In this document: positions 2,125 through 57,027 of the stretch, in pieces
Layout: each line of letters opens with the position of its first letter
Position numbering within the stretch: position 1 is the first letter of the stretch
DNA from: Bacteroidia bacterium
Lineage (GTDB): Bacteria; Bacteroidota; Bacteroidia; DATLTG01
Assembly (NCBI GenBank): GCA_039924845.1
Contig: JBDTAC010000068.1
Coordinates: forward strand, 925 to 64,924
Reading direction: 5' to 3'
Length of the DNA stretch: 64,000 nucleotides
Notes under the pieces: generated by a model
What the model was told of the DNA's origin: nothing
The model's input: the letters and a program-made list of their open reading frames with translations, nothing else
Databases searched by the model: none
Translations under genes and position numbers: made by a program

Positions 2125-3144
2125 TTATCGTTCCGAAAAACATTTTTTCAAGCCTTCGTATTCCGAAAAAGTTTCTTGTTTTAATTTTTCAATGATTTCT
2201 TTGCAAGAAGAAATCGTTTCAATTAATTCTACTGATTGTCCTGCGCACCAAAGTGTATCATAGTTTCCAGGTTTTACCGAAGCCTCTAATTCTTTCATTC
2301 CTTTAATCTGCACCAACATTTTAAAATATTTTTTAGTGGTTTTATTTTTAGATAAAAACCGCTCAATCATATTTTGTTTGTACCCAATTTTTTTCGCGAA
2401 AGGTGTATTAATAATAGTACACGGCGTTCCTGAAATCCTTTCGGTAAGCACAATATCTTCCATTTTAGAATCTACAATCGCATTTTTATATTCCATTTTT
2501 ACAGTTGCTTCCGTGCTGGCAATAAATCGCGTACCGATGGAAACGCCTGCTGCACCTAATGCGAGCATGGATAAAATTCCTTTTCCGTTTGCAATTCCTC
2601 CAGCTGCCACAACTGGTTTTTCAGGAAAATGTTGGTGCAAAGATGGAATCAACACCTGCAACGGAAACGGTCCAGCATGTCCACCAGCGCCTTGTCCAAC
2701 GGCAATAAAGCCATCGCAATTTAAGTCGAAACATTTTTTTGCATGCGCGATATTGGTTACATCACAAAAAACTTTTCCGCCATAAGCGTGCGCTTGTTCA
2801 ATCACTTCTTTCGGACTTCCAAGCGAAGTAATGTAAAATGGAACTTTTTTTTCGACACAAATTTTTAAATGCTTTTTGTACAAAGGATTGGTTTGTTGCA
2901 CAATTAAATTAATTCCGTAAGTGCCTATTTTATTCTTTTGGGAAGCATTCAAGGTATCTAAAACAGTTTCGAGTTCGCCTTCTTTTCTATAATTTAACGA
3001 AGGAAAAGCACCTGCAATTCCAGCTTCCATTGCAGCTTCTGTCATTGCTACATTCGACACCAAAAACATTGGAGCCATAATTATCGGAAAAGAAATATTC
3101 AGTATTTCTGTGAGTTGGGTAGAAATAGGTTTCGTTTGCATCAA
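2125..3144 (-). CDS. NAD(P)H-dependent flavin oxidoreductase, nitronate monooxygenase/FabK-like
   Basis: 339 aa. FMN-binding TIM-barrel motifs (IIMAPMFLVSN, VAAGGIANGKG, GQGAGGHAG) characteristic of the NMO/2-nitropropane dioxygenase family. Confidence 0.8.
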   Translation of the reverse strand: MMQTKPISTQLTEILNISFPIIMAPMFLVSNVAMTEAAMEAGIAGAFPSLNYRKEGELETVLDTLNASQKNKIGTYGINLIVQQTNPLYKKHLKICVEKKVPFYITSLGSPKEVIEQAHAYGGKVFCDVTNIAHAKKCFDLNCDGFIAVGQGAGGHAGPFPLQVLIPSLHQHFPEKPVVAAGGIANGKGILSMLALGAAGVSIGTRFIASTEATVKMEYKNAIVDSKMEDIVLTERISGTPCTIINTPFAKKIGYKQNMIERFLSKNKTTKKYFKMLVQIKGMKELEASVKPGNYDTLWCAGQSVELIETISSCKEIIEKLKQETFSEYEGLKKCFSER

Positions 3145-3276
3145 AAAATAATTTTTAAAAACCTTGCAAAATTAATCTATTTACTTCGTGCGAAAAAGAT
3201 TTTTTTTATCTGCGAAAGCGAAATCAGCATACTTTTATTATTTAACTTTGGACAGCAATCAAAAAAATATTTTACA

Positions 3277-5040: not shown

Positions 5041-5319
5041 ATTAGATTTGAGAATTTGAATATGTGCAGATGTAGCGATGCTAATTGAAAATTTATCGTC
5101 ATTCTGAACTTGATTCAGAATCTACGCGAAGAATTTTTTTTCGGTATCGAATCTCGAATAAAATTTAGACTTTTTGTCTACTCCAACGGAGTTATGAAAT
5201 ATAATCTTTTAAGAAAAAAACATCCTACGCTATGCTTTGAAAAATATTTTTTCAAATATATTTTTCTACATCAAAAAAACGGCTTCAAAAAAATAATTTT
5301 TCAAAAGGAATTTTATTGC

Positions 5320-9748: not shown

Positions 9749-9811
9749 GATTTATCTGCTGTAAAGAGGTTTGAAAAAATATTTTTTCAAACCTCTTTTT
9801 CAAGGTCATTT

Positions 9812-10834: not shown

Positions 10835-10953
10835 TCTTTTTTTATTCGATTTAGGATTCTGAAATTTAGGATTTAAAATTTCCAATCCAATTGTTAGTAT
10901 TAAATTTTTTTAAGAGAATTAAATCCTAAATGAGAAATCCTCAATCATTTATT

Positions 10954-12480: not shown

Positions 12481-12636
12481 CCTCATTTTTATTAGCTGCA
12501 AAGGTAAGAAATATATATCCGCTATGTAAGTGATATTACCATTGTTAATAAAGATTTTTTTATTGTTGATAAGGCGGTTTTGGAGAGTGAAAAAAGGATG
12601 TTTGAAAAATTATTTTTTCGAGAGTGAAAAAACGGC

Positions 12637-13266
12637 TTAAAAATCTTCTTCGCAGCGGCAGTTTGGCGAAAAATAAATCAACGTATGCGGCAACATTTTT
12701 TTCAAGCGTTTTTGATTGATGTCGCTCACAATAATAACGCGTAAATCCAGCATTTTCAGTCTGCGCAGCTCTTTCATTTGATCCGGGAAAAAAGACAAAT
12801 TGTTATTCCATAAATCCAATATGCGCAAATTGGTAAGTTTCCCGATTTCTGCCGGCAAAGCGTAAAGTCCATTTTGATTGACGTTGAGCCAAAATAAATT
12901 TTTCAAATCGCCTATTTCTGGCGGCAGTGTATCAATATTATTACGCGCCAGTTGCAGTACTTGCAATTGTTTCAATTCCTTGATATCAGAAGGAATAACG
13001 GTAATTTTATTTTTACTTAAGTCGAGGTATTGTAAATTGTGCATCAAAAAAATTTCTTTCGGAAAGGCCTCCAAATGTTTTCTGCGCAACACCAATTTTC
13101 TAACTTCATCGGGATGTTTCATCGCTTCCGCGATACTGGTGCAGGCGTGCATTGTATCTAAGGAAAGCGAATCCAATAACTGCGCTTTTGCTTGTTTTTG
13201 AAAAGCCAAAAAAAGCAGCATCAAAAAAATAATTTTTTGAAAGGAAAAAATCTTTTTCGAATTCAA
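12637..13266 (-). CDS. secreted leucine-rich repeat (LRR) protein
   Basis: Signal peptide (LLFLAFQKQAKA) followed by about six 23-residue LxxLxLxxNxL repeats (LQYLDLSKNKITVIPSDIKELKQLQVLQLARNNIDTLPPEIGDLKNL...). Confidence 0.75.
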   Translation of the reverse strand: MNSKKIFSFQKIIFLMLLFLAFQKQAKAQLLDSLSLDTMHACTSIAEAMKHPDEVRKLVLRRKHLEAFPKEIFLMHNLQYLDLSKNKITVIPSDIKELKQLQVLQLARNNIDTLPPEIGDLKNLFWLNVNQNGLYALPAEIGKLTNLRILDLWNNNLSFFPDQMKELRRLKMLDLRVIIVSDINQKRLKKMLPHTLIYFSPNCRCEEDF

Positions 13267-13269: not shown

Positions 13270-14199
13270 TTAGGAATTTAGAATTTTTAAACTATGTTCT
13301 TTGTCAAGCCCAATCTGCTTTATAAGCGAATCTAAATCTGAAAATTTTTTTTCGTCTCGCAAAAATTCTTTAAAATAAATCACCAACTCTTCTCCGTAAA
13401 TAGACGAATCAAAGTTAAAAATATTTACTTCAATTGTACGCGAAGTGCCTCCAACAGTTGGATTTTTGCCGATGCTCATCATGCCTTTGTACATCTTTTT
13501 TGCGTGCAATATTTCTACGGCGTAAATGCCGTCGGCAGGAATGAGCTTGTGTTTGTCGCTTATTTCGAGGTTTGCCGTGGGATAACCGAGCGTGCGCCCC
13601 AATTGTTTTCCTTGCACTACTTTACCAGTGATAAAATACGGAAAACCTAAGTATTCATTGGCTTTTCGGATGTCGCCCTTTTGCAAAGCTTTGCGAATTT
13701 TTGTAGAACTCACCTCACTATTTTCGACGTCTTTCGCTGGAATTTCTTCCACATCAAAACCGTACAAAGGACCAAATTCTTTTAAATGCTCAAAACTGCC
13801 TTCGCGGTTTCTGCCGAAATGATGGTTATAACCAATCACCAATTTTTTGGTGTGAATTCCATCCACCAAAATACTGCGCACAAAATCGATGGAAGAAAGT
13901 CGTGAAAACTCTTTGGTAAAAGGCAAGACAATTAAATTATCAATACCTGCTTTTTCGAGTAACTGAATTTTTTCGTCTTGCGTCAGCAATAATTTTAAGT
14001 CGTTATCGTCCGGAAAAAGCACCATCCGCGGATGCGGGAAAAAAGTAAGTAAAACGGTTTCGCCTTTTTCTTTTGTAGCGATTTCTTTTAAACGATTAAT
14101 TATTTTGAGATGTCCCAAATGCACGCCATCAAAGGTCCCGGTGGTTACTACAGGAACGATAATTATAGGAAAATCGGCAATGCTGGTAAAAATCTTCAT
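13270..14199 (-). CDS. ribF: bifunctional riboflavin kinase / FMN adenylyltransferase RibF
   Basis: 309 aa. N-terminal nucleotidyltransferase motif GTFDGVHLGH; C-terminal riboflavin kinase domain (GRTLGYPTANL). Confidence 0.9.
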   Translation of the reverse strand: MKIFTSIADFPIIIVPVVTTGTFDGVHLGHLKIINRLKEIATKEKGETVLLTFFPHPRMVLFPDDNDLKLLLTQDEKIQLLEKAGIDNLIVLPFTKEFSRLSSIDFVRSILVDGIHTKKLVIGYNHHFGRNREGSFEHLKEFGPLYGFDVEEIPAKDVENSEVSSTKIRKALQKGDIRKANEYLGFPYFITGKVVQGKQLGRTLGYPTANLEISDKHKLIPADGIYAVEILHAKKMYKGMMSIGKNPTVGGTSRTIEVNIFNFDSSIYGEELVIYFKEFLRDEKKFSDLDSLIKQIGLDKEHSLKILNS

Positions 14200-14382
14200 T
14201 CAAAAAAATAATTTTTGAAACGTTTAAAAAACGCGACAAAAATAGGAAAATTAAGAGGACTTTTAACCAAAAGAAAAATTGAAAACGGATAATTTTAAAG
14301 CTGAAAAAAGAGGTTCAAAAAAATAATTTTTCGAAGCTCTTTTTTTTGACTTCGCGAAAAACAAATTTTATATCTTTGCGCC

Positions 14383-16300: not shown

Positions 16301-16358
16301 CGTTCAAAAAAATAATTTTTCAAACCTAAAAATACACGAATAAAAAAACCTAAAAATC

Positions 16359-17750: not shown

Positions 17751-18205
17751 ATTAAGAATTAAAAATTCAGAATGGAGAATTGATTTGGAAATTTGCTAAT
17801 TTGAAAATGTGAATGTCATTCTGAACGGAGTGAAGAATCTTTCCGAAGACAAAAGTTTTTACCGTTTTGAAAAATTATTTTTTTGAGGGGCAGAATATTT
17901 TCTATCCTTATCTATTTGCAAATTCGTTTAAAATCAATTCATATTCTTCAAAGCGATGTTTACGAATCGGCCTTATTTTTGGCTCGGTAGAAAAATATAA
18001 AAGTAAGCAAGGTTTTATTGATTTATAATTCTCCACGTATTCGTACCTTACTAACTCCTTATTTTTAATTCGTTGCTTTATTTTGTTGTGATAAGGATAC
18101 ATTTTATTTACACGATTTTTTTGATTTTACATTGAGTGTATTAAAGGATTTATCCCGTGCTTATTTTTTCATTTTCGTGCTTTTTCATTTTGAAAAATTA
18201 TTTTT

Positions 18206-18943
18206 TCAAAACGTATTTTTTACTTTCAGAATAATTTTATTATTTGTGAGGCTGTACTCAAAATGCGTATTTTCGAGTGTTTTTGTTGAATCGTCTAAAT
18301 TATATTCTTCCGATTTTTTATCCAACACTAATTTTCCATCTCGATTTAAAATTCCCGACAAAATAAATTGATAGGAATTTGGAGTATCTATCCAAAAAGA
18401 AATTTGTCCCAAACAAAATGTTTCTCCCAACTTATTTTCATTTAATTCTGTAAAATTAATACTCGTTGTATGCCACCAAGGGTCTGCTTCGTAGCTGGAA
18501 TAAGAAATTGCCCAAATCAATAACGACAAATGATGATTCAAATTTATTTTCTGCAAACCGTACGCATTGGCGTTTTTCGTCATTCCAATGTCTAATTTCT
18601 CCGCCCATTTCGAAAAACCATGCGCTGCTTTTACCGAATCTATTTTATAAAAATCGCTCAACCGATCTTCATCGTTCATAACAAGACTGTCGTCCAACCA
18701 TTTTGTGGTTAATAATCTTATTTCATTTGCACCCAAAGAATCTTTCGTACTAAAATTAGTCATATAAGTAGAATCAATCCTTACAGGAAATGAATTTGTA
18801 TTTTTAAAATGAAGCAACAACGACTGGAGATTTGGATTTAAAAGCGTTTTATCTGCATTTTTATTTTGAGGATTTCCGAAATAAAAAGCGATTAGTAATA
18901 CCATTAAAATGAATCCCGATTTAAACAGAAAAGAAATTCGCAT
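18206..18943 (-). CDS. hypothetical secreted protein
   Basis: 245-aa ORF with an N-terminal signal-like hydrophobic segment (MRISFLFKSGFILMVLLIAFYFG); no recognisable family. Confidence 0.45.
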   Translation of the reverse strand: MRISFLFKSGFILMVLLIAFYFGNPQNKNADKTLLNPNLQSLLLHFKNTNSFPVRIDSTYMTNFSTKDSLGANEIRLLTTKWLDDSLVMNDEDRLSDFYKIDSVKAAHGFSKWAEKLDIGMTKNANAYGLQKINLNHHLSLLIWAISYSSYEADPWWHTTSINFTELNENKLGETFCLGQISFWIDTPNSYQFILSGILNRDGKLVLDKKSEEYNLDDSTKTLENTHFEYSLTNNKIILKVKNTF

Positions 18944-19120
18944 CGTTGTTTATATTTTGAAAATTATTTTTTGGAACGCTCCTTTTCAAAAATAGTACTA
19001 AAACCAAAGATGCCATTTTTTTGTCTTCGAAAAATTAATTTTTCGAAATACCATTTTTCGTTATTATTCAAAATTACAATTTCCGAAAAAAGAGTATTTT
19101 TGAGGAAATAAATTTTCTCA

Positions 19121-20350: not shown

Positions 20351-20439
20351 AAAATATAAACTACTTTTACAGAAGTATTAAAAAATACCACTCAAAAAAA
20401 TAATTTTTCAACCCTCAATAAACCTTAAAAAAATTCACT

Positions 20440-21751: not shown

Positions 21752-21859
21752 TGCCTTTTTTGACAGAATCGAATTTAATAGTGTTTGAAAAAATATTTTT
21801 TCAAACACTATTATTGTACCAAAAAATAAATACATTTGTCGCCGAAGTGGTTTTAGATG

Positions 21860-24302: not shown

Positions 24303-25021
24303 TGGAGAAAAAAGAAAAAGTTGTTTTTTGTTGGAGCGGAGGCAAAGACTCCGCTCTGGCATTATACAAAATACAGCAGGAAAACAAATATGAAGTTATC
24401 GCATTTTTAACGACGGTGAATGAAAATTTCAAACGTGTTTCGATGCACGGCGTGCGCGAAGAATTACTGGAAATGCAAGCAGATTCTGTGGGAATTCCTT
24501 TGGAGAAAATCTATGTGAATCAAGGTTCCAATGCAGAATACGAAAATAAGATGGAAGAATTTTTACTTCGTTACAAAAAAAAAGGAGTTGAAAAAATAAT
24601 TTTTGGCGACATCTTTTTGGAAGATTTACGCACGTATCGCGATGCTAATTTGGCGAAAGTAAACATGCAAGGAATTTATCCTTTGTGGAAAAAAAATACG
24701 AAGGAGTTGATTACAGAATTTTTGTCGCTCGGTTTCCAAACTATTATTTGTTGTGCCAACGATGCCTTTTTAAATGAACAACACGTAGGCGAAATCATCA
24801 CACAAAAATTTATAACTGATTTGCCAGATAACGTAGATCCTTGTGGAGAAAACGGAGAGTTTCACACCTTTTGTTTTGCAGGACCAATTTTCAAAAAGAA
24901 AATAAATTTTTCAATAGCAGAGAAAATTTATCGTCCGCTTGAAATTAAAAAATCAGAAGATAACTGTTCCTTGCTCGAATCAAAAACATTGGGTTTTTGG
25001 TTTTGTGATTTGAAAAAATAA
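24302..25021 (+). CDS. Dph6-related ATP pyrophosphatase (DUF71/MJ0570 adenine-nucleotide alpha-hydrolase family)
   Basis: PP-loop-like N-terminus VVFCWSGGKDSALAL; start codon overlaps the receptor stop (TAATGG), indicating an operon. Confidence 0.65.
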   Translation: MEKKEKVVFCWSGGKDSALALYKIQQENKYEVIAFLTTVNENFKRVSMHGVREELLEMQADSVGIPLEKIYVNQGSNAEYENKMEEFLLRYKKKGVEKIIFGDIFLEDLRTYRDANLAKVNMQGIYPLWKKNTKELITEFLSLGFQTIICCANDAFLNEQHVGEIITQKFITDLPDNVDPCGENGEFHTFCFAGPIFKKKINFSIAEKIYRPLEIKKSEDNCSLLESKTLGFWFCDLKK

Positions 25022-25050
25022 TTTTTCAAATCCTTTTTATTCGTGAAATT

Positions 25051-26184: not shown

Positions 26185-26274
26185 AGAATTTGTCGTTTAA
26201 AAAATTATTTTTTCGAACTACAAATTTAACGTATCAACGCTGTTATTAAAAGGTAGTACCCGAATAGTTATACA

Positions 26275-27333: not shown

Positions 27334-27383
27334 AATAACAAAAATTATTTTGGTTAGAAAAAGGCGTTCAAAAAATTAATTTT

Positions 27384-29081
27384 TCAAAGAGAATATTTTC
27401 GTTTTCTCACAAAAAATTGAATCATTCCGTAAATAATAATTAACAAAGAAGGAAGTACTGTATTGATTATTTGCCATTGCAAGCGCTCGTTCGCTATTTT
27501 TTTCTTGTCGAGCAAACGCAATTTAATTTCTCTTCCGCGCAGCGGAATTAAACTTTCATCACCAGTTAAATAATTGATACAATTGAGTATAAAATTTTTA
27601 TTTCCGTAAGTGCGATTCGTGTAAAAATCATAGCCTAAAGGAAGCGCTCTTCCTGTTGATTGCTGCACTTCGTTTTTGATAACGTTTCCATCCGCAATCA
27701 CAATCATTTTCGTTTCCGGACTTTGATATTTGTAATCAATTTCTTTGTCGTTCACAATTTTTGGGATATCGCGATTGGTGTACAACGATTTGAATTTACC
27801 TTCCAACAGCACTGCCAATGGCTGGAAAGGCTTATCGAATTGCTGCATTGCCAAAGGATATTCCACAATTCCTAAACTTACGCGCGTAGGTGTTTCTGCC
27901 AAACGGCTGTATTTAGAAGTACGTAGTAAAAAGGTTTTTTTAATTCCTTCTGAACCAATAGTATCAAGGGAACTGGCAAAATTAAATTCTATCAAATCTA
28001 AATTCTTTGTAATGATATTTTGAGGATTATTTCCCACCAAGGGCGTATAAACCCAAGGCACCAATTGCCAATCTGGCGGACTACCTCGAAAAGCTTTGTT
28101 AATAGGGATCATGGAACATTGCATGTCCTGAACAATATCCGTATTGATGCGCGCACCGTAATTAAAAAGCATGTCATTCAAATTCAACTCACGCGGAAGC
28201 CCCATCGTAATGCCTGAATGGTGCAAACTATCCATATTAGTATAAACGGAATTAACGAGCCAAAGAATTTTTCCTCCGTGCATCACAAATTGATCAATGA
28301 TAAATTTATCTTTTTCGTTGATAATGGTATCTGGATTGGCGATTATCAACAGTCCAATGTCTTGCAAACTTTTTAATCTTCCCTCTATTTTTACGCGTTT
28401 TGTTACATAAAAATCATTCAAGGTATTGGTAATATCGGCAACTCGCAAGGAGTCTAATTCTCCGTGCCCGTATAAAAAGCCAACTTCACGACGTACCGGA
28501 TTTTTTAAAATGCGCATCGCACTTGCGAAATCATATTCTAATTTTTGAACAGAATTATTCAGTGCTTCGTCTGGCGGAACACCGGGATCATTTTGAAGCA
28601 ATTGAACGGGCGCACTTTGTCCTTTGTAGCTGATTACTGCCCAAGGAAAAATAACCTGTTCGGACGATCCGCCATTGTCGTCCTTCACTTGTAAATTAGT
28701 GGGCGTTAATCCTTGATTGTACAATTGGCGGTAAAAAGCATCGCGTACTTTTGTATCTGGATTAGCAGACGGATTGATAAATTCATATTGAACGTTCCCG
28801 TGAGAATAAGCACGAAACTCATCCAACATTTCTTTCGTTTCACTTTTTAAACGCTTGAATCCTGAAGGGAAATCACCATCCAAATACACTTTTACGTAAA
28901 CAATATCGTTCACGCTTTCCATCATTTTTTTGGTATCGTCCGATAAAGTATACCGTTTTTCGGATGTTAAATCAAAACGATGAAAAACAAAAGAGCCGAT
29001 AAAATTACACAGCACGACAATGGCAATACTGAGCACCAACCAAATGATATCGCGTTTTTTATTTCCTCTTTTCTGTGTCAA
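27384..29081 (-). CDS. gldG: gliding-motility-associated ABC transporter auxiliary component GldG
   Basis: 565 aa, N- and C-terminal TM segments flanking a large periplasmic domain; adjacent to gldF. Confidence 0.75.
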   Translation of the reverse strand: MTQKRGNKKRDIIWLVLSIAIVVLCNFIGSFVFHRFDLTSEKRYTLSDDTKKMMESVNDIVYVKVYLDGDFPSGFKRLKSETKEMLDEFRAYSHGNVQYEFINPSANPDTKVRDAFYRQLYNQGLTPTNLQVKDDNGGSSEQVIFPWAVISYKGQSAPVQLLQNDPGVPPDEALNNSVQKLEYDFASAMRILKNPVRREVGFLYGHGELDSLRVADITNTLNDFYVTKRVKIEGRLKSLQDIGLLIIANPDTIINEKDKFIIDQFVMHGGKILWLVNSVYTNMDSLHHSGITMGLPRELNLNDMLFNYGARINTDIVQDMQCSMIPINKAFRGSPPDWQLVPWVYTPLVGNNPQNIITKNLDLIEFNFASSLDTIGSEGIKKTFLLRTSKYSRLAETPTRVSLGIVEYPLAMQQFDKPFQPLAVLLEGKFKSLYTNRDIPKIVNDKEIDYKYQSPETKMIVIADGNVIKNEVQQSTGRALPLGYDFYTNRTYGNKNFILNCINYLTGDESLIPLRGREIKLRLLDKKKIANERLQWQIINTVLPSLLIIIYGMIQFFVRKRKYSL

Positions 29082-29110
29082 AATTGTCGGTCAAAAAATT
29101 AATTTTTCAA

Positions 29111-29842
29111 TCACCATTTTCTACTTTCTAAAACTGTTTTTGTCAGCAAAATAAAAATACCAATAAGGCTGAGATAATACAAAACATCGCGTGTATCAAT
29201 CACTCCGCGACTCATGGAGGCGTAATGTGCATTGATGCCCAAAGCTAAAATGAAATTATCTACTTTACCAAAAATGTGTGCGGTACTTATAAATTCGAAA
29301 CCGTAATAAAAAAACAAACAAAGTAAAACTGCCAAAATAAAGGCGATAACTTGGTTTTCGGTAACGGAAGAAGCAAAAATACCGATGGCAACAAAGGCGG
29401 CACCTAAAAAAAGCAAGCCGATGTAAGAGCCCCACATTCCTCCAGTATCAATATTTCTGGGAGGATTTCCCAAACGAGAAACACTGTAATAATAAATCAA
29501 TGTGGGTAATAAGGAAAACACAACCAAAAATAATCCGGCAGCGTATTTTGCTAAAATAATTTGAAGATCGGAAAGTGGTTGCGTGAGTAACAATTCGATG
29601 GTTCTACCTTTTCTTTCGTCAGCAAAAGAGCGCATCGTGATGGCAGGAATCAGAAATAAAAACACCCAAGGAGCTACAATAAACAAAGCATCTAACGAAG
29701 AGAATCCACTTTCTAATACATTGGAATCCATCGGTAAAACCCACATAAACAAACCTACAGCCAATAAAAAAACGAGAATAGTAAGGTATCCTATCCATGA
29801 ATTTAGAAAACTGCTAATCTCTTTTTTTAAGAGTGTGAACAT
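29111..29842 (-). CDS. gldF: gliding-motility-associated ABC transporter permease GldF
   Basis: 243 aa ABC-2-type permease with about six TM segments, upstream of gldG. Confidence 0.75.
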   Translation of the reverse strand: MFTLLKKEISSFLNSWIGYLTILVFLLAVGLFMWVLPMDSNVLESGFSSLDALFIVAPWVFLFLIPAITMRSFADERKGRTIELLLTQPLSDLQIILAKYAAGLFLVVFSLLPTLIYYYSVSRLGNPPRNIDTGGMWGSYIGLLFLGAAFVAIGIFASSVTENQVIAFILAVLLCLFFYYGFEFISTAHIFGKVDNFILALGINAHYASMSRGVIDTRDVLYYLSLIGIFILLTKTVLESRKW

Positions 29843-30087
29843 TGGATTGTTTTTGAATTTTCTTTATTTATGAGCAGCGCAAAAATACTTTTTTTCGGCA
29901 ATAAACACGCCTGCACTTTTTTTTATTTAACATTTTTTAAGAACAAGTTTTCTTGGAGATGATAACGGGGGGATTATTTTCCAAAATCAATAAAGCATTT
30001 CGACCGACACGAAATTACACTTTTTATATCAACTTATACTAATTATTATTGATACTTTTGAGTCTCGAAAAAATAATTTTTCAAAGA

Positions 30088-30465: not shown

Positions 30466-30522
30466 AGCGATTGCGTTCTGTTAATTTTAGTGTTTGAAAA
30501 ATTAATTTTTCAAACACCTTTT

Positions 30523-34090: not shown

Positions 34091-34287
34091 CAAAAAAGCA
34101 AATCCAATTTATCTCTGCTGGAGAGGGCAGGGGGAGAAAAATAGTTTGCTTATCATTTTCGATTGAATTACATTTACCAAGCTAAATTCATGCTCGTGAA
34201 GAAAATAATTTTTCAAGCCTCATTAATTACCTTCCTTTTTCCGAGCCTTAATTTCCTTCAAGCGCAAACCAAAATAGGTTCTAAAAA

Positions 34288-37810: not shown

Positions 37811-37875
37811 TGTTAGTGAGTAGTGCGATAGGTAGTGTTCCAATTTGCACCTGTCCTTTTTAAAAAATCAAAAAC

Positions 37876-38146
37876 GTATTTCAAAAAATAATTTTTCAAA
37901 CCAAAAAAGCATTTCAAAAAATAATTTTTCGGAGAAGAAAAATAAAAACTTGATTGAAAAAACGTATTTGAAAAAATAATTTTTCAAATCAAAAAACGGT
38001 TTCAAAAAATAATTTTTCAAACGAAAAACACATTTCAAAAAATAATTTTTCGGAGCAGCAAAATAAAAAATTGGAATAAAAAACCAGTTTCATAAAATAA
38101 TTTTTCAAACTAAAAAAAAGTTTTCAAAAAAATAATTTTCTGAACG
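37876..38146 (+). repeat. tandem array of about eight copies of the palindromic TTTCAAAAAATAATTTTTC motif with 10-35-bp A-rich spacers
   Basis: For example GTATTTCAAAAAATAATTTTTCAAACCAAAAAAGCATTTCAAAAAATAATTTTTCGGAG... repeated. A partial duplicate lies at 46311-46395. Confidence 0.9.
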
Positions 38147-38292
38147 AGAAAAAAAATGGTTTGCAAAAAAAAGTTTTTAAAAACCATTTCAGCCGTATCA
38201 GGGATGGTGTAGCTACAAGAAGGAGCAGCAGCAATTGACAATGGAGAATTAGTAATTAATAATTGATAATTACTAATTGCAGATTATTTGCA

Positions 38293-43411: not shown

Positions 43412-43420
43412 ATTTTACTT

Positions 43421-46264: not shown

Positions 46265-46540
46265 GTAGTGTTGGTAGTGTTCCAATTTGCACCTGAGCTT
46301 TTTAATTCATAAAATAATTTTTCAAACGAAAAAAAAGTTTTCAAAAAATAATTTTCTGAACGAAAAAAAAGAGTTTGCAAAAAAAAGTTTTTGAAAACCA
46401 TTTCAGCCGTATCAGGGATAGCGTAGCCAAGAGGGGAAGCAGAGCAATGGACCATTCAGCCCCACCTAAATCCTCCCCAAAGGAGAGGACTTAAAAGAAA
46501 AAAAAATTGGAAATGATTTTGCCGATTGGAATTTCAAATT

Positions 46541-46719: not shown

Positions 46720-46786
46720 AAAAATGAAAAATTGTAAAATGGAATGAAATTTTCGATATTTTTGTAATAGTTAAAAGACAGTAAGT

Positions 46787-47398: not shown

Positions 47399-47429
47399 GT
47401 ACTATATTTATTCTTGATTAAAATTGTTT

Positions 47430-47467
47430 AAAATCCATTCTCAAAAGGAATGGATTTTTTATTTTTA
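47430..47467 (+). terminator. rho-independent terminator-like hairpin (duplicate of 44693-44730)
   Basis: AAAATCCATTC-TCAAAAG-GAATGGATTTTTTATTTTT. Confidence 0.7.
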
Positions 47468-47503
47468 ATACAACTTTTTTTGTATTTTTATCAAAAGAAA
47501 AAA

Positions 47504-48376: not shown

Positions 48377-48385
48377 ACAGAGGCT

Positions 48386-48907
48386 GTGGACTCCTCGTTA
48401 AAACATAAAAACATTATGACCTTAAAAATTACCCTTAAAAACCAATTCGATGCCTTTAACTATCAAATTTTTGGGATTGTTATAATGGGTATTTATTTAT
48501 ATTTTTTTCCAGGTTTAGGATACTTAATAGCACTTACTTGTGGATGGTTATTTTCTGCTCTTCCTGCCATTTATTTACATATAGAATATTACTTAAGAAA
48601 CAAAGGAGAAGAAATTACCATAAATTTTGACGAACTAATTGTGAAAAAAAATGGTGTTGAAAAAAAATACAAAAACCAAGATTTTGAAAAAATAGTTGTG
48701 TACATGGCAGTATCGTACAATTTCGCCATTATAGGAATGCAGTATTATTTTTACACTCGCCTTATCACAACAAAAGGAGAAGAAATTATCATCACTTGTT
48801 TAATGACTCGAAAGATGGAAGAAGTATTAAAAACATTGGGTGCTCCTTATAAAATTAGTAGACTGCCCCTTTTTTACAGCTTGCGTTTTGGTCGGTTAAA
48901 AAAATAA
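48386..48907 (+). CDS. putative membrane immunity protein
   Basis: 173 aa with at least two TM helices (IFGIVIMGIYLYFFPGLGYLIALTCGWLFSALPAIYL); immediately downstream of cassette 4. Confidence 0.45.
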   Translation: MDSSLKHKNIMTLKITLKNQFDAFNYQIFGIVIMGIYLYFFPGLGYLIALTCGWLFSALPAIYLHIEYYLRNKGEEITINFDELIVKKNGVEKKYKNQDFEKIVVYMAVSYNFAIIGMQYYFYTRLITTKGEEIIITCLMTRKMEEVLKTLGAPYKISRLPLFYSLRFGRLKK

Positions 48908-50166
48908 TTTTTCAACCACCAATTATTGGAGAAAAAACAAGTTTCAAAAAATAATTTTTTCGAAAGCACTTTCTCAACAGATGCAATGACAGCATTTGCA
49001 ACGGTTTTGACTTGGTCATCTGTTAAATCATAAAAAACAGGCAAGGATATTTCACGCGAATAATTATCGAATGTAACAGGATAGTTTTTTACATCATATC
49101 CAAGCGATTTGTAAAAACTCATCATCGGAACGGGAATAAAATGCACGTTCACGGAAACATCTAAATCAAAAATAGATTGAATGATTTCGTCGCGTTGTGG
49201 TTCCGTAATTCCTTTTATCCGCAAAGGATATAAATGGAAGGAAGAAGTTTTCTCATTTGTATTTTGTTCTGGAATTTCTGCCCATTTGTGTTTGGAAAGG
49301 TATTGATTGTAAACAGAAATAATGTGTTTCCGTTTTACTAAGGTGTCGTTTTTATAACGCGCTAATTCTACTCTGCCAATGGATGCTGCGATGTCCGTCA
49401 TGTTGCATTTATAGCCGGGTTCTACAATATCGTAGCGCCAATTTCCTTTTTGTGATTTTGCCAGCGCATCTTTATTTTGTCCGTGCAAAGATTTTATGCA
49501 AAGCGATTGATACAAACTATCGTTATCAAAAGGAGCGGGAAAATTCAGTGCAATGGCGCCACCTTCGGCAGTAGTTAAATTTTTTACGGCATGAAAAGAA
49601 AAGACCGAAACATCTGTTAAACTGCCCGATGTACGGTTTTTATAAATCGCGCCAAACGAATGTGCTGCATCTGCGAGAATTAAAATACGACCTAATTTTT
49701 TTTGTTCTAAAGTATCTCCCGAAAATTTATTTTTCAAACGAATGACTAATTCATTTAATTCATCGTAATCACATGGAAATCCACCAAAATCCACTGGCAT
49801 AATTACTTTTGTTTTGGATGTAATTGCTTTTTCAATCGCAGAAATGGAAATATTAAAATCATTTTTATTCACATCCACAAAAACAGGAGTAGCGCCGCAG
49901 TGCATAATTACATTGGCAGTAGCGGCATACGTATAAGCTGGAAGAATAACTTCGTCGCCGGCTTTTACACCAAACCAACGCAACATTAATTCCATGCCTG
50001 CCGTAGCCGAATTTAAACACAGCGTGCTTTTGTTGCCGCAATAGTGTGTTATTTCTTTCTCGAAAAATTTTGTTTTCGGACCGGTGGTAATCCAGCCAGA
50101 TTGCAAGGCGAGCGTTACTTCGTCGATTATTTTTTGGTCGATGTGCGGAGGCGAAAATGGGATCAT
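48874..50166 (-). CDS. DegT/DnrJ/EryC1/StrS-family PLP-dependent sugar aminotransferase (ArnB-like)
   Basis: Start at MIPFSPPHIDQKIIDEV; PLP-lysine region (SFHAVKNLTTAEGGAI). The last ~25 codons are encoded by two copies of the palindromic motif (…KKLFFETCFFSNNWWLKNYFFNRPKRKL). Confidence 0.85.
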   Translation of the reverse strand: MIPFSPPHIDQKIIDEVTLALQSGWITTGPKTKFFEKEITHYCGNKSTLCLNSATAGMELMLRWFGVKAGDEVILPAYTYAATANVIMHCGATPVFVDVNKNDFNISISAIEKAITSKTKVIMPVDFGGFPCDYDELNELVIRLKNKFSGDTLEQKKLGRILILADAAHSFGAIYKNRTSGSLTDVSVFSFHAVKNLTTAEGGAIALNFPAPFDNDSLYQSLCIKSLHGQNKDALAKSQKGNWRYDIVEPGYKCNMTDIAASIGRVELARYKNDTLVKRKHIISVYNQYLSKHKWAEIPEQNTNEKTSSFHLYPLRIKGITEPQRDEIIQSIFDLDVSVNVHFIPVPMMSFYKSLGYDVKNYPVTFDNYSREISLPVFYDLTDDQVKTVANAVIASVEKVLSKKLFFETCFFSNNWWLKNYFFNRPKRKL

Positions 50167-50269: not shown

Positions 50270-52270
50270 ATGATTACAGCTCAAACAGAAATTCGGTTTA
50301 ACCGAAAAAAATACAAAGATTCTACCCTTCTTGCGCTCTACAATGGCTTACTGAAGCCGCGCATGATAGAAGAAAAAATGCTTTTATTACTTCGTCAAGG
50401 AAAAATTTCCAAATGGTTTTCGGGTATCGGACAAGAAGCTTCATCTGTGGGAGTGGCGATGGCATTGGAAAAAGAAGAATATATTTTGCCGATGCACCGC
50501 AATCTGGGTGTTTTTACTTCGCGTGAAATTCCTTTGAATCGTCTTTTTGCTCAATTTCAAGGGAAAGAAAGCGGCTTTACAAAAGGTAGAGATCGCTCGT
50601 TTCATTTCGGAACGCAGGAATATAAAATTATCGGAATGATTTCGCATCTCGGTCCGCAATTGGGGATTGCCGACGGAATTGCATTGGGGAATCTTTTGAA
50701 AAAAAACAATCAAGTAACAGCAGTTTATTCGGGTGATGGCGGCGCGAGCGAAGGTGATTTTCATGAATCGCTGAACGTGGCTGCTGTGTGGGATTTGCCA
50801 GTTATTTTTGTTGTGGAAAATAACGGTTATGGTTTGTCTACGCCTTCGAACGAGCAATTTCGTTGTAAACAATTTATTGATAAAGCCATTGGTTATGGGA
50901 TGGAAGGCGTGCAGGTAGACGGAAATAATGTGTTGGAAGTGTACGACACGGTTTTGAAAATTGCAGAATCCATTCGTAAACGTCCGCATCCGATATTGTT
51001 GGAATGTATGACGTTTCGTATGCGCGGACACGAAGAAGCGTCGGGTACCAAATATGTTCCGAAAGAATTGATGGAAGAATGGGGAAAAAAAGATCCTCTG
51101 AATAATTATGAAAAATATTTGTTGGAAGAAAGTGTGTTGACCGAAACGATTATTCAAGAATACCGCAGCGAAATAAAACAGGAAATTGATAAAGGCTTGG
51201 AAATTGCATACGCTGAAAACATCGTAAAGCCAGATGCGCAAAGAGAATTAGGTGATATGTACGCACCTTTTGCAAATGTTTCCGTTGCTCCGAAATCTGA
51301 AAAAAAATCAAGTAAACGTTTGATTGACGCTATTTCTGATGGTTTACGTCAGGCGATGAGAAAACATTCTGAATTGGTTTTAATGGGACAAGATATTGCG
51401 GAGTACGGTGGAGTTTTTAAAATCACGGAAGGCTTTTTGGCGGAGTTTGGAAAAGAGCGTGTGCGCAATACGCCTTTGTGCGAATCGGCGATTATCGGTT
51501 CTGGATTCGGCTTGTCTATCAACGGTTTTAAGGCAATGGTGGAAATGCAGTTTGCGGATTTCGTAACCTGTGGATTCAATCAAATTATCAATAATTTAGC
51601 GAAATCGCATTACCGTTGGGGACAAAATGCCGATGTGGTAATTCGTATGCCGACAGGTGCAGGCGTAGGAGCTGGACCGTTTCATTCTCAATCTAACGAA
51701 GCTTGGTTTTTTCATACACCCGGATTAAAAATTGTGTATCCTGCTTTTCCATCTGATGCAAAAGGTTTGTTGTTAGCAGCTTTTGACGATACAAACCCAG
51801 TTTTGTTTTTCGAACACAAAGCACTTTACAGAAGTATTTCGGAAGATATTTCGGATGATTATTATACGATTGAAATTGGAAAAGCAAAATTGTTGAAAAC
51901 AGGAACTCAACTTTCTGTTATTACCTACGGAATGGGCGTGCATTGGGCTTTAGAGATTTTGAATTTGCATCCTGAAATTTCTGCCGACTTGATTGATTTG
52001 CGAACTTTATTGCCTTACGACAAACAAGCTATTATTGATTCCGTGAAAAAAACTGGAAAAGCTTTGGTGTTGCACGAAGATACTTTTACAGGCGGAATTG
52101 GCGGCGAAATTGCCTCCATGATTTCTGAAAATTGTTTTGAAAGTCTGGATGCGCCAGTGGTGCGGAGCGCGAGTTTGGATACTCCCGTTCCGATGTCGGC
52201 AGAATTAGAAGCTGATTTTTTACCGAAAGAGAGATTTGAAAAACAATTAATAGCGCTTTTTAACTATTGA
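50270..52270 (+). CDS. fused 2-oxoacid dehydrogenase E1 component alpha/beta subunits (TPP-dependent)
   Basis: Alpha-subunit TPP motif (GDGGASEGDFHESLNVAAVWDLPVIFVVENNGYGLST) followed by the beta/transketolase-like domain in a single 667-aa ORF. Confidence 0.85.
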   Translation: MITAQTEIRFNRKKYKDSTLLALYNGLLKPRMIEEKMLLLLRQGKISKWFSGIGQEASSVGVAMALEKEEYILPMHRNLGVFTSREIPLNRLFAQFQGKESGFTKGRDRSFHFGTQEYKIIGMISHLGPQLGIADGIALGNLLKKNNQVTAVYSGDGGASEGDFHESLNVAAVWDLPVIFVVENNGYGLSTPSNEQFRCKQFIDKAIGYGMEGVQVDGNNVLEVYDTVLKIAESIRKRPHPILLECMTFRMRGHEEASGTKYVPKELMEEWGKKDPLNNYEKYLLEESVLTETIIQEYRSEIKQEIDKGLEIAYAENIVKPDAQRELGDMYAPFANVSVAPKSEKKSSKRLIDAISDGLRQAMRKHSELVLMGQDIAEYGGVFKITEGFLAEFGKERVRNTPLCESAIIGSGFGLSINGFKAMVEMQFADFVTCGFNQIINNLAKSHYRWGQNADVVIRMPTGAGVGAGPFHSQSNEAWFFHTPGLKIVYPAFPSDAKGLLLAAFDDTNPVLFFEHKALYRSISEDISDDYYTIEIGKAKLLKTGTQLSVITYGMGVHWALEILNLHPEISADLIDLRTLLPYDKQAIIDSVKKTGKALVLHEDTFTGGIGGEIASMISENCFESLDAPVVRSASLDTPVPMSAELEADFLPKERFEKQLIALFNY

Positions 52271-52364
52271 AAAAAATAATTTTCGGAAGCCTTTTTTTAA
52301 GAGTTGAATTTTAGATGAATCTTTTCCAAGAATACGCTAAATTTGAGGAAATTATTTTTCAGGA

Positions 52365-54959: not shown

Positions 54960-55047
54960 GTTTTTTCTTTTCGAAAAAATGATTTAAAAAAATAATTTTT
55001 CAATTCGAAATTTTGACTTCAAAAAGAGGCTTCAAAAAAATAATTTT

Positions 55048-57027
55048 TCAAAAGCGAATATCTTCTTCGTGATGGATTATTTTTTGAGCGGAAAGTTTTT
55101 GATACTTCTTATATTTTTCGATGTTTCCTTTTTTCAAAAAATAATTTTCTAAAAAACGACAATCTACATTATTTATAGAATCTGTACGAACAGCGATTTC
55201 GTAGTAATCTGCCGTTTTCAGAGAATCGTTTTTCCATAAATAAATGGTTCCTAAATTGGAGTAAATGGCTGCCGATTTTATTCCTTTATCTAAAGCTCCA
55301 TAATTGAGCGCAAAAGCAGCATCGTAAAATTCGTGATGTAAATATAAATTGGTCAAACTGACGTAAGCGGGCATAAAATGAGGGTTTAATGCAATGGATT
55401 TTAAAAAATATTTTTCTGAAAGACTGTCGTTGCCAAGTAAATGTTCGCAAGTGGCAAGGTTAAAAAACGCGACGACATAATTCGTATCCACTTCCACGGC
55501 TTTCTGCAAAAGCGGCAGTGCGGCAGAATCGTTTTTTTCAAAAATCATCTCTGCTTTTCCAAGGTCATTTAGCGAAGTCCTATCGTCGGGATAAATTCCC
55601 AAAATAGTTTTGTAGGAAGCAATTGCAGCATTTTTTAATTGCTCTTTGGTTTGTCCTGTCGTGTTATCGTCAGCGTAATAATATTCCAAGCATTTAGTAG
55701 CATATAGTTGTTGTAAATGGACGGATTTTTCGGCAACAACAATATCGTGAGAATATAAGGTATAATGATTTTTCCAATCAAAATTTCGTGCAATGGTCCG
55801 TACTGAAAATAAAACTAATACGATAGAAATAGTAAATAAAAAAGGACGATTCAGTTTCAAAAGTCTTACTTGATGTGATGTATAAGAGATTTTAAAAATC
55901 TCCAATAATCCGATTGCCAATAAAATACAAAGACCCAATGAAGGAATGTATGCGAAACGTTCAGCGACAATCCCAACAGCAGGAACCAAAATATTAAGGA
56001 ACATAGAAATCGAAATAAAAAAATAAAGAATACCAAATGCAAAAACCTTTTTTTTCTTTAATCCAATAAATGCCAAGATGAGAAAAGAGACGACGATTAT
56101 AAGCGACATTATAAGAATCATTTTATTCGGATACAAAATATCCACTTGGTTGTAGCCGTAATAACAAATTAATTTTTTCGGGAAAACGAATAGTTGAATA
56201 TACCAAAAAAAAGTAGCCAATGCGGCAATTCCCCGTGTGGCATATCCACGTATAAAATACAAAGGGTTTTCGATGTACCCCAAAACCCGATGTTTTGGAA
56301 TTCCGAATAATAATTTTTTTTGTATCAATATAAAAACGATTACCGAAAGTAGTAAACATCCAAAACAAATAACTAATTGCTTCCAATTACATTTGCCGAA
56401 AAAGTAGAGGAATAAGGGAATAATTACGATAAACGTCATGGCATCAATTTTAGAGGCCATCGCTACAATGAATGTAATTCCTCCCAAAAAAATATTTTTA
56501 ACACGATTGGTTTCTGCATATTTTATAAAAAAATATGCAGACAAAATAGAGCTAAAAAAACTAAATAATGCGTCTCTGTTTTTTAAACTATCTACTACTT
56601 CAGCATGGATAGGATGCACCAAAAACAGTGTAGTAACGAGCAGTGGCAAGAGAATGGAATAATTTTTAAATAATTTTTGCAGGAATAAAAAAAGAAAAAT
56701 ACACGTAAATGCATAAATCAGAATATTTATAAAATGACTGATGTGTGGATTTTCGCCAAACAGCGAATATTCCATTGCAAAACTGACTTTGACGATGGGG
56801 CGATATCCATAATCTTCATTTTCTGCGTGCGAATAACGCGTGGTAAATATCTCAGGAATTGCTTTTATCCCTTGATGAATTTGAGCATTTTGGTAAATAA
56901 CAAGCTCATCGTCCAGTGCATATCCATTACGAATGCTGTTTCCATAAACCAGAAAGCAAAGAACTCCCAGAAAAATGCAAATTTTCAGTTTCTCACTTTT
57001 TAAACAATGGATTAGTTGATTTTTCAT
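55048..57027 (-). CDS. TMTC/DUF1736-type polytopic membrane protein with C-terminal TPR repeats (GT-C, PMT/ArnT-like glycosyltransferase candidate)
   Basis: N-terminal YGNSIRNGYALDDELV...GYRPIVKVSFAMEYSLFGENPHISHFINILIYAFTC (DUF1736/PMT_2-like); about 11 TMs; TPR repeats in the last 250 aa. Confidence 0.6.
   Translation of the reverse strand: MKNQLIHCLKSEKLKICIFLGVLCFLVYGNSIRNGYALDDELVIYQNAQIHQGIKAIPEIFTTRYSHAENEDYGYRPIVKVSFAMEYSLFGENPHISHFINILIYAFTCIFLFLFLQKLFKNYSILLPLLVTTLFLVHPIHAEVVDSLKNRDALFSFFSSILSAYFFIKYAETNRVKNIFLGGITFIVAMASKIDAMTFIVIIPLFLYFFGKCNWKQLVICFGCLLLSVIVFILIQKKLLFGIPKHRVLGYIENPLYFIRGYATRGIAALATFFWYIQLFVFPKKLICYYGYNQVDILYPNKMILIMSLIIVVSFLILAFIGLKKKKVFAFGILYFFISISMFLNILVPAVGIVAERFAYIPSLGLCILLAIGLLEIFKISYTSHQVRLLKLNRPFLFTISIVLVLFSVRTIARNFDWKNHYTLYSHDIVVAEKSVHLQQLYATKCLEYYYADDNTTGQTKEQLKNAAIASYKTILGIYPDDRTSLNDLGKAEMIFEKNDSAALPLLQKAVEVDTNYVVAFFNLATCEHLLGNDSLSEKYFLKSIALNPHFMPAYVSLTNLYLHHEFYDAAFALNYGALDKGIKSAAIYSNLGTIYLWKNDSLKTADYYEIAVRTDSINNVDCRFLENYFLKKGNIEKYKKYQKLSAQKIIHHEEDIRF

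Follow-up and report, generated by a model that had tools for sequence, protein, structure and literature searches.

The REP and BIME elements known from Enterobacteria, Pseudomonas and Stenotrophomonas are 20-40 bp long, imperfectly palindromic, present in high copy number and almost exclusively extragenic. They lie at gene 3' ends and between cistrons, singly or in clusters of alternating orientation, their sequence is species-specific, and they are missing from recently acquired DNA. Some copies work as RNA stem-loops. One end of a REP has a conserved tetranucleotide, GTAG or else CGTC (PMC3733652). Three other described systems come close to parts of this picture. A/T operators (Lrp/AsnC-FFRP, Fis) and UP elements carry a TTGAAA...TTTCAA-type dyad around an A/T core, with similar A-tract geometry and sites at about three helical turns. 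Rho-independent terminators, some of them bidirectional, follow stop codons and occupy convergent gaps, and 20-50% of CDS across bacteria have predicted trailing terminators (PMC13613805). Uptake words (DUS/USS) of Neisseria and Haemophilus occur at about one per kb and recur in terminator-like inverted repeats; inverted pairs of uptake sequences form terminators in Neisseria and Pasteurellaceae (PMC1852404).

Here, we describe a motif from the MAG of an uncultured Bacteroidia bacterium that resembles REP/BIME elements in its size and imperfect palindromy, its high copy number, its almost exclusively extragenic placement at 3' ends and between cistrons, its single or clustered occurrence, its species-specific sequence, its absence from recently acquired DNA and the RNA stem-loops that some copies form. 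We propose, with a probability of roughly 0.4, that it represents a new clade-specific REP-like family of short dispersed gene-boundary palindromes.

Results

The analysis covered a 64 kb window (the whole stretch of DNA under study) and about 12 kb of a sister species. In its basic form the motif reads TT[C/G]-A5-7-(TA/TAA/TTAA)-T5-7-[C/G]AA and occurs about 45-50 times in the window, which bears out the count of at least 45 given in an earlier note on this DNA. The fuller consensus is TTT-S-A5-7-(TA/TAA/TTAA)-T5-7-S-AAA (S, C or G), often with an A-run and a G/C-rich block of 3-5 nt upstream. The S-to-S distance ranges from 13 to 16 nt, and the ratio of TTG to TTC half-sites is about 2:1. 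When up to three mismatches were allowed, the 21-mer TTCAAAAAATAATTTTTCAAA gave 39 matches, against 0.25 expected and a maximum of 2 in dinucleotide shuffles. The core 14-mers (AAAAAATAATTTTT with its reverse complement, AAAAAATATTTTTT and AAAAATTAATTTTT) were found 29 times in the 64 kb, where the 3rd-order Markov background suggested in the earlier note predicts 0.28 and a 5th-order model 0.78; in intergenic DNA there were 26, against 0.38 expected from a model built from intergenic DNA (27% GC). A relaxed pattern identified 50 sites, 31 intergenic or at gene boundaries and 19 in CDS, corresponding to densities of 5.75 and 0.32 per kb and thus to an 18-fold difference. The motif is genuine, far above chance and nearly all intergenic. 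Its frequency is above expectation and its placement is biased relative to gene boundaries, so neither of the two results that the earlier note named as refuting was obtained. The A-run precedes the T-run 27 times and follows it twice, and the reversed order would give an equally good hairpin; the order of A-run then T-run is obligatory in the motif.

The copies outside arrays are as follows (strand in brackets, with a dot where none is assigned).

3139..3160 (+): CATCAAAAAATAATTTTTAAAA copy, divergent gap between fabK-like and fadD-like genes
5236..5256 (.): TTTGAAAAATATTTTTTCAAA copy, G..C form, convergent gap fadD/rodA; folds at -5 kcal/mol
5283..5305 (+): CTTCAAAAAAATAATTTTTCAAA copy, C..C form, 18 nt past rodA stop; 48 bp from the preceding copy (5236..5256)
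9765..9796 (.): AGAGGTTTGAAAAAATATTTTTTCAAACCTCT, perfect 32-bp palindrome in the mreB/mreC spacer; -19.2 kcal/mol, z -7.3
12601..12622 (-): copy 18 nt past LRR gene stop, with flanking 13-nt direct repeat TTTTTTCACTCTC
13219..13242 (+): copy, C..G form, abutting LRR gene start (13221, gap 0 nt), 31 nt past ribF stop
13244-13258: degenerate partner of the 13219..13242 copy
14198..14220 (+): copy, C..G form, divergent gap, 1 nt upstream of ribF start (14199)
14306..14347 (+): AAAAAAGAGGTTCAAAAAAATAATTTTTCGAAGCTCTTTTTTTT extended copy of terminator-like shape, ribF/prfB divergent gap
16302..16324 (+): copy, C..C form, with the arsC-like stop 4 nt before it and fumC 37 nt after it; -0.6 kcal/mol, z -0.3
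17866..17888 (-): copy, reading G..G on the + strand, gap after fumC
18189..18210 (-): copy, G..C form, that includes the TGA stop of gene 18206-18943; -9.4 kcal/mol, z -4.6
18956..18976 (-): weaker copy, divergent gap, 15 nt ahead of where gene 18206-18943 starts
19026..19047 (.): TTCGAAAAATTAATTTTTCGAA copy, divergent gap
20390..20412 (+): copy, C..C form, gap between fadL-like and esterase genes; 0 kcal/mol
21777..21812 (.): perfect 36-bp palindrome upstream of a cobalamin riboswitch; -18.3 kcal/mol, z -7.7
25009..25030 (+): copy, G..C form, central TAA being the stop of gene 24302-25021, convergent with dnaN; -8.9 kcal/mol
26195..26217 (-): copy 13 nt upstream of dnaN start
27336..27388 (+): two copies 32 bp apart, 27336-27355 weak and 27366-27388 of C..C form, the latter containing the gldG TGA stop
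29089..29111 (+): copy, C..C form with TTAA centre, between gldF stop and gldG start
30064..30085 (+): copy, divergent gap, 5 nt upstream of the ridA ATG (30088)
30490..30517 (.): perfect 28-bp palindrome, convergent gap of ridA and an Omp85-family gene, followed by T6 on the + strand; -11.9 kcal/mol, z -5.5
34198..34217 (+): GAAGAAAATAATTTTTCAAG weaker copy, 16 nt past a stop codon
35654..35676 (+): copy, C..C form, 4 nt ahead of an ATG (35678)
48894..48916 (+): copy, central TAA being the stop of gene 48386-48907
48942..48964 (+): copy, C..C form, 48 bp from the 48894 copy, in the last 71 nt of a - strand DegT-family ORF
52266..52287 (+): copy that includes the TGA stop of an E1 dehydrogenase gene, with GGAAGCC and T7 after it
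54982..55004 (+): copy 26 nt beyond the MprF-like stop
55030..55052 (+): copy, C..C form, that includes the TGA stop of - strand gene 55048-57027; 48 bp from the 54982 copy
63867..63889 (.): AATCAAAATTTATTTTTTTGAGC divergent copy, 18 nt past the window's last stop codon

The positions listed previously were right to within a few bases in nearly every case; 14325 corresponds to 14313-14335. All three long palindromes described before exist and are perfect, with coordinates that needed shifting by 1-4 nt to those given above. Copies that had been placed 1-3 nt upstream of start codons are roughly there, the real gaps being 5 nt (ridA), 4 nt (35678), 1 nt (ribF) and 0 nt (LRR gene). The 36-bp palindrome sits downstream of a GC-stem terminator (21716-21749). 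The 13-nt direct repeat is isolated, being seen at 12604 only.

When sites are defined strictly, the motif is present in 18 of the 35 gaps that measure 30 nt or more, among them four of five convergent gaps, five of six co-directional gaps on the - strand and three of six divergent ones; the divergent count becomes 3-4 of 6-8 depending on site definition and gap-length cut-off. When flanks are read loosely, each of the seven convergent gaps shows a copy, or something close to one, at its edge. A copy lies within 50 nt of 22 of about 55 stop codons (40% of CDS), 6-7 stop codons are inside a copy, and copies are also found inside operons. In the window and related contigs, about 10 copies end 0-8 nt ahead of a start codon, and the distance to the next start spreads from 0 to more than 120 nt. 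Pairs of copies exactly 48 bp apart occur in three gaps.

Two arrays flank a recombinase island.

37865..38181 (+): array of seven copies and one degenerate copy, left edge of the island
46307..46395 (+): second array, two copies and one degenerate copy, right edge of the island

The first, whose seven good copies and one degenerate copy span 37879-38181, had been reported as about eight copies at 37876-38146. Its centres are 33 or 55 bp apart within a 121-bp higher-order repeat, the 33-bp unit consisting of the motif and an A-rich linker of 11-13 nt, and the spacing of 33-34 bp amounts to about three helical turns. The second array is homologous to the right end of the first, and both are head-to-tail (direct repeats) and not of alternating orientation. 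In the 7-8-copy arrays, the foldable strand is antisense to all neighbouring genes. A CRISPR array was rejected, as there are no unique spacers and the 33-bp units of motif and linker themselves repeat within the 121-bp unit. The island between the arrays (38.2-46.3 kb) is horizontally acquired, and the motif is absent from it.

Of about 40 copies, about 12 have a folding energy of -5 kcal/mol or better. G..C and extended copies reach -9 to -19 kcal/mol (z -4.6 to -7.7), while C..C forms, about 40% of copies, range from 0 to -2.5 kcal/mol with z about 0 as + strand RNA. The core stem has one G:C pair at most, and in 4-5 copies the stem is extended, with A and T runs on either side. There was no covariation across copies between the two S positions or in the variable flanks. 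Because the C..C copies are unfolded and neither S positions nor flanks covary, structure cannot explain the uniformity of sequence. At the mreB-mreC palindrome, three compensatory double substitutions separate the arms from those of a species with 82% nucleotide identity (TTTG/CAAA versus ATCT/AGAT). Three more distant relatives have unrelated hairpins in this spacer, and the position of the hairpin is conserved across five genomes. The comparison of mreB-mreC sequences shows that a subset of copies are true hairpins maintained by compensatory change. In the window, the only Rfam family at gathering threshold was the cobalamin riboswitch, with no match at the motif. The family is heterogeneous, and no one RNA-level mechanism covers all copies.

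A search of related genomes, as proposed in the earlier note, recovered the motif in part. The 82%-identical species keeps the core A6-TA-T5/6 in four orthologous gaps; its TTTS/SAAA arms are not conserved. A group of metagenome contigs, all from one series of samples, also has the motif, which was not found at 80 Bacteroidota fumC loci or in three relatives at about 58-60% MreC identity. It is restricted to a narrow clade. The copy at the gldG stop (27366-27388) is found in the window genome only, being absent from the related species, and is built on pre-existing TTTAAAAA. Relative to the related species, the 14313 copy was completed by an 18-nt gain (its right half), and the ribF-LRR gap has two copies here and one there. 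The motif is old enough to occupy orthologous gaps at 82% identity, yet is still being gained, completed and locally duplicated.

Discussion

The idea of a REP-like element, raised before among several, describes the motif best: a clade-specific intergenic palindrome that forms tandem clusters, is absent from the island and is gained and lost between species. The likeness is incomplete. Aligned flanks contain no GTAG or CGTC tag, the ends being TTT-S and S-AAA, and no RAYT/IS200 (Y1 transposase) gene was found among the about 50 window ORFs scanned. In contrast to REP/BIME elements, the stem consists of A and T alone apart from one C/G position in each arm, clusters are direct repeats of 33-bp period, many copies cannot form a stem on one strand, and some copies abut start codons or occupy divergent gaps. 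In many copies the similarity extends further into the left flank (A5-7 followed by C/G-R-G-S and TTC), pointing to copying and not independent origin. As to target-site duplication, flanking direct repeats averaged 5.0 nt versus 4.8 nt in shuffled-flank controls; a MITE was rejected, since these repeats are not longer than in the controls.

We infer that copies of this REP-like family may originate in A-rich sequence at gene boundaries, through template switching (inverted copying) and local duplication in tandem, and not through a cut-and-paste transposon. They would be retained because an A-tract/T-tract palindrome is useful at a gene boundary. Where the arms pair, the RNA stem-loop could act as an attenuator, terminator or 3' end protector; the DNA could also provide a bendable or cruciform-prone site readable by a host protein.

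The main rival to the REP-like reading is a DNA-level site for an abundant sequence- or shape-reading boundary or nucleoid-associated protein, for instance an Lrp/AsnC-like or Fis-like dimer reading two TT-S-AAAAA half-sites over a narrow A/T minor groove. We regard this as possible but on balance doubtful. It would account for sequence being conserved even where structure is not, for the two S positions varying independently, as degenerate half-sites would, and for copies in convergent, divergent and co-directional gaps alike. A-n-T-n tracts are curved and T-n-A-n tracts are not, so the strict run order (27 versus 2) matters for DNA curvature and not for hairpin stability. The helical spacing of the arrays and the 48-bp pairs point the same way, and the motif may resemble archaeal FFRP sites (TGAAAWWWTTTCA) and G-N13-C Fis cores. 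However, an S-to-S distance that varies over 13-16 nt is unusual for a rigid dimer, the sister species conserves the core and not the arms, and pairing explains the compensatory arm changes at mreB-mreC more simply. No candidate protein was identified. Unlike A/T operators, which number tens or hundreds, the motif would number thousands per genome, with variable half-site spacing and no known cognate protein. A more specific version, in which an abundant, lineage-specific DNA-binding protein demarcates transcription units and uses the 20-mer as its operator across the genome, is quite improbable in our view. Such a sequence-specified "gene-boundary" or insulator system would possibly involve protein-assisted, hairpin-independent termination or a roadblock, and the arms of the A-tract/T-tract dyad would co-evolve with the protein (TTTG/CAAA here, different in the sister species).

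It was also suggested that the copies are bidirectional AU-hairpin terminators. They would then be the intrinsic, often bidirectional, terminators or attenuators of this lineage, with A:U stems and an internal U-run. This is unlikely for the family as a whole, and holds best for the minority that fold. The share of CDS with a copy near the stop (40%) is inside the bacterial range, convergent gaps are mostly or all occupied (4/5 strict, 7/7 loose), and the extended copies have the textbook shape of A-tract, stem and T-tract. The A-run then T-run order provides a 3'-side U-run on both strands, the mreB-mreC spacer hairpin keeps its position in five genomes, and the intergenic DNA of the 64 kb contains one clear GC-stem terminator (21716-21749). 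Relatives without the motif are likewise poor in GC-stem terminators, and therefore it cannot be claimed that the motif has replaced terminators. Against this reading, the C..C copies are unfolded as + strand RNA, covariation is lacking, the foldable strand of the arrays is antisense, and copies lie in divergent gaps and directly against start codons. A downstream T5+ run showed no association with a gene ending in that direction (2x2 test, odds ratio 0.92, p = 1). Compared with rho-independent terminators, the motif lacks a G/C-rich stem, with no more than one G:C pair in its core, conserves sequence rather than structure, and has T-runs without a directional link to gene ends.

The promoter and DNA-uptake readings are poorly supported. 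As a 5' element, the motif would be part of a promoter (a -33 TTTG with an A/T spacer, or an UP-like tract) or an A/U-rich leader that would help Shine-Dalgarno-less translation initiation, and we consider this very unlikely. It draws on the copies ending just before start codons and on the cobalamin riboswitch, where TTTG (21784-87) lies 21 nt upstream of TATTATTG (21809-16), a geometry that fits the -33/-7 promoter of Bacteroidota, whose -7 box is at -12 to -5 (PMC9723704). The TA-centre form, matched by eye, also agrees with the E. coli UP-element consensus AAAWWTWTTTTNNNAAA as used in PMC2425493. However, distances from the motif to TAnnTTTG show no peak and no fixed 19-21 nt spacing, and by inspection a -7 box with at least 7/8 matches stands at the right spacing in just 3 of about 14 TTTG-bearing copies. 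Copies also occupy convergent gaps, where promoters are not expected, and next-start distances are widely spread. The orientation preference of the motif follows from the general excess of A over T on the sense strand in gaps (AT skew 0.17, motifs removed). An uptake signal for natural transformation is highly improbable, having in its favour only its frequency, about one per 1.4 kb as for DUS/USS. Genes often contain uptake sequences, whereas this motif is 18 times rarer in coding than in intergenic DNA; it is also A/T sequence of low complexity, its arms are not conserved even in the sister species, and no competence genes were seen in the window.

If the protein-operator reading is true, the motif points to an unknown global chromatin or transcription-boundary factor. 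If the REP-like reading is true, one stereotyped A/T palindrome has come to fill the short gaps between genes across a whole genus-level lineage of uncultured Bacteroidia, a REP-like solution that would have evolved independently in a phylum for which descriptions of such families are scarce. The motif would provide a compact signature for binning and tracking the lineage in metagenomes and, because the recombinase island is without it, a mark of native versus acquired DNA. A subset of copies could become weak terminator or attenuator parts for Bacteroidota engineering. The family may also serve as a natural system for the origin of dispersed palindromes without a dedicated transposase, in which pre-existing A-runs would be completed into palindromes.

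Abundance and placement of the motif

The A-run/T-run near-palindrome of about 20 bp, described as pervasive in the earlier note, is indeed strongly over-represented. A 21-mer with up to three mismatches gave 39 matches against 0.25 expected from dinucleotide shuffles. The Markov check proposed in that note found 29 core 14-mers against 0.28 (third-order) and 0.78 (fifth-order model) expected. Intergenic DNA alone (27% GC) held 26 core 14-mers, and a model trained on the same DNA predicted 0.38. Chance and base composition are thus ruled out by both whole-window models and by the intergenic one. The positions first reported were correct to within a few bases, and the three long palindromes are perfect, at 9765-9796, 21777-21812 and 30490-30517.

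A relaxed pattern matches 50 sites in the window. Intergenic DNA totals 5.4 kb and accounts for 31 of them, edge positions included (5.75 per kb); the remaining 19 fall within 58.6 kb of coding sequence (0.32 per kb). The genes are a housekeeping Bacteroidota set (rodA-mrdA-mreDCB, purH, ribF, prfB, fumC, dnaN and gldFG), accompanied by T9SS cargo genes, an Omp85 family member and a TonB receptor preceded by a cobalamin riboswitch. Of the 35 gaps that reach 30 nt or more, 18 contain a copy under a strict site definition: 4/5 convergent, 3/6 divergent and, among co-directional gaps, 5/6 on the - strand and 6/18 on the + strand. Many of the + strand gaps without a copy are inside the recombinase island at 38.2-46.3 kb. 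When flanks are read more loosely, a copy or near-copy stands at the edge of 7/7 convergent gaps. A copy is found within 50 nt of 22 of the approximately 55 stop codons, the stop codon being the motif's own TGA or TAA in six to seven cases; four copies have a start codon 0-5 nt beyond their end. In three convergent gaps, paired copies have their centres exactly 48 bp apart (5246/5294, 48905/48953 and 54993/55041); the second copies have in common a longer left flank, an A-run followed by GGC and TTC.

Motif architecture

Copies conform to the consensus TT(T)-S-A5-7-centre-T5-7-S-AA(A), where S stands for C or G; TA, TAA/TTA or TTAA forms the centre, and the S-to-S distance is 13-16 nt. Each S position varies independently of the other. 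About 13 intergenic copies are G..C and therefore true palindromes; about 15 are C..C, about three G..G and about three C..G. On the + strand C..C outnumbers G..G (11 versus 2 loci). Many copies have a common extended left flank made of A5-7, a G/C-rich block of 3-5 nt and TTC.

Permutation tests ruled out a general extension of the hairpin with covariation. The two S positions are paired at a fraction of 0.43, versus 0.39 with permuted partners, the variable flanks pair no better than permuted flanks, and just 3-6 copies are extended beyond the conserved core. The order of the arms, A-run then T-run, is obligatory: it was found 27 times, versus 2 for the reverse order, which would fold equally well and occurs at chance level, so the idea that any A/T hairpin suffices was rejected. 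Copies of the asymmetric form A7-TAA-T5 follow the direction of transcription in 12/13 co-directional gaps, and in 7/9 cases in related contigs. This bias needs no functional cause, because gap DNA lacking the motif has an identical A>T skew of the sense strand (0.17), and we rejected it as a sign of functional directionality.

Stem-loops, and possible roles in DNA recognition and termination

The motif family as a whole is not a hairpin, but a subset of its copies are bona fide stem-loops. Folding energies of G..C and extended copies range from -9 to -19 kcal/mol (z -4.6 to -7.7); as + strand RNA, the C..C copies, which make up about 40% of the total, lack structure (0 to -2.5 kcal/mol, z about 0). 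Between the window genome and its sister species, the core-adjacent arms in the mreB-mreC spacer differ on each side at three of the four positions (TTTG/CAAA versus ATCT/AGAT) and pairing is retained, and three more distant relatives carry unrelated hairpins in this spacer. These observations are good evidence that a stem-loop in the spacer is under selection.

RNA structure does not, however, account for the uniformity of the sequence. For this reason, recognition of the motif at the DNA level by a host protein is a serious rival reading.

Evidence for the AU-hairpin terminator proposed in the earlier note is mixed. Its placement downstream of stop codons and within convergent gaps was confirmed and some copies do fold; in addition, GC-stem terminators are nearly absent from the window. 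The single clear case in the intergenic DNA of the 64 kb, followed by a motif copy, is:

21716-21749, GC-stem bidirectional intrinsic terminator GAAAAAATGCAAGCTCTTGAGCTTGCATTTTTTT

Against this function, C..C copies do not fold as + strand RNA, divergent gaps also contain copies, and the foldable strand of the tandem arrays is antisense to all neighbouring genes. The test for a directional terminator was null, as the downstream T-run showed no link to a gene that ends in the same direction (odds ratio 0.92). GC-stem terminators are just as scarce in relatives lacking the motif, which weakens the proposal that the motif replaces canonical terminators. The Chryseobacterium and Flavobacterium loci examined differ from the window and its close relatives in this respect.

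Candidate promoters, riboswitch and prfB

The motif has no preferred spacing to TAnnTTTG boxes. One plausible promoter was found, in which the motif's TTTG (21784-87) would act as the -33 element and TATTATTG (21809-16), 21 nt downstream and before the riboswitch, as the -7 box, a match to published sigma-A box geometry (PMC9723704). The features concerned, and the prfB start, are:

21831-22031, + strand, cobalamin riboswitch (Rfam RF00174, 107.6 bits), directly upstream of the TonB-dependent receptor at 22032-24302
14384, + strand, prfB start ATG, in the interval 14372-14449

In prfB the classical +1 frameshift site CTT TGA C follows GAGGAGG and occupies 14443-14449. Because a -7 box TATCTTTG at 14372-14379 would make transcription begin at the ATG itself, the prfB mRNA is possibly leaderless.

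Distribution and origin of copies

The window belongs to a 68-kb contig of a MAG whose MreC protein is MEO6883092.1 / MEO7088585.1, and an identical 12-kb Logan contig exists. Samples containing the organism include SRR24716215 and the ERZ272568xx series. The sister species (GCA_035533735.1), with 82% DNA identity over 10 kb, keeps the core AAAAAATATTTTT(T) with different arms in four orthologous gaps. They are the gap before ribF, the one between ribF and the LRR gene, the one that follows the LRR gene, and the mreB-mreC gap. At the gldG stop, the window genome alone has a copy, the relative having just the left arm TTTAAAAA; the 14313 copy was completed in the window genome through an 18-nt gain; and two copies occupy the ribF-LRR gap, versus one in the relative. 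Searching with GldG and DnaN added one 1.7-kb contig of the sister species.

The motif is absent from three relatives at 58-60% MreC identity (L086, L087 and L168) and from 80 fumC loci across Bacteroidota; loci from the FumC scan of the genome collection were too distant to be useful (best protein identity 81%). A metagenome scan with the 21-mer returned mostly chance matches in very low-GC contigs, and multi-copy short contigs came from one sample series, Ga0307372-4. The literature searched contained no description of the motif.

The common extended flank, the 33-bp arrays, a 13-nt direct repeat enclosing the 12604 copy and the gains seen in comparison with the sister species show that copying and local duplication are ongoing. 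In two cases a pre-existing left arm was completed into a palindrome, which suggests that copies may arise by inverted copying (template switching). Target-site duplications are generally absent around copies, and the window ORFs scanned include no transposase.

The recombinase island and other repeats

The 8-kb island at 38.2-46.3 kb, which codes for a pair of tyrosine recombinases and a methyltransferase in truncated form, contains several gaps but zero motif copies, and tandem motif arrays flank it at both edges (37865-38181 and 46307-46395). The wider region, 33000-49000, resembles a recombinase-associated toxin/immunity cassette island. It also contains a PIN gene, and small ORFs of unknown function followed by a common GGTAGTGTTC...CACCTG box. 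Its features are:

41578-42501 and 42554-43411, tyrosine recombinases
38296-38372 and 46520-46596, remnants of recombinase 3' ends
38341-39525, truncated D12 methyltransferase
34195/44674/47411 and 36455/47558, repeated modules
35717-35896, 21-bp tandem repeats (about 8 copies) inside ORF 35678-37234, encoding 7-residue protein repeats
33903-34076, 21-bp tandem repeats (about 8 copies) inside ORF 33916-34185, encoding 7-residue protein repeats

Short tandem repeats with units of 7-8 nt (GTGATTAG, AATTAAG, AATTGAA and AATTAAT) form a second type of filler between genes, at 15474-15508, 39513-39552, 42500-42543, 38247-38278, 10849-10881 and 17745-17773. These occupy gaps without the A/T palindrome, all island gaps included. 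Gaps of L086 and L087 are filled by similar heptamer repeats and by palindromes made from them.

Classification of the motif

Our leading but tentative reading, to which we assign a probability of about 0.4, is that the motif represents a REP-like family, restricted to one clade, of A-tract/T-tract palindromes located at gene boundaries. Of the options in the earlier note, the REP-like element describes it best; the tag and the alternating clusters expected of REP are lacking, and no RAYT was found among the window ORFs scanned. The motif also fails the defining tests of canonical intrinsic terminators, promoters and MITEs. The uptake signal that had been suggested fails those of uptake sequences (0.32 copies per kb of coding against 5.75 of intergenic DNA), and phage association was dismissed when viral contigs gave single chance matches only. 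Since the tests that define each of these classes failed, we place the REP-like family among the dispersed intergenic palindromic repeats, as a form of its own.
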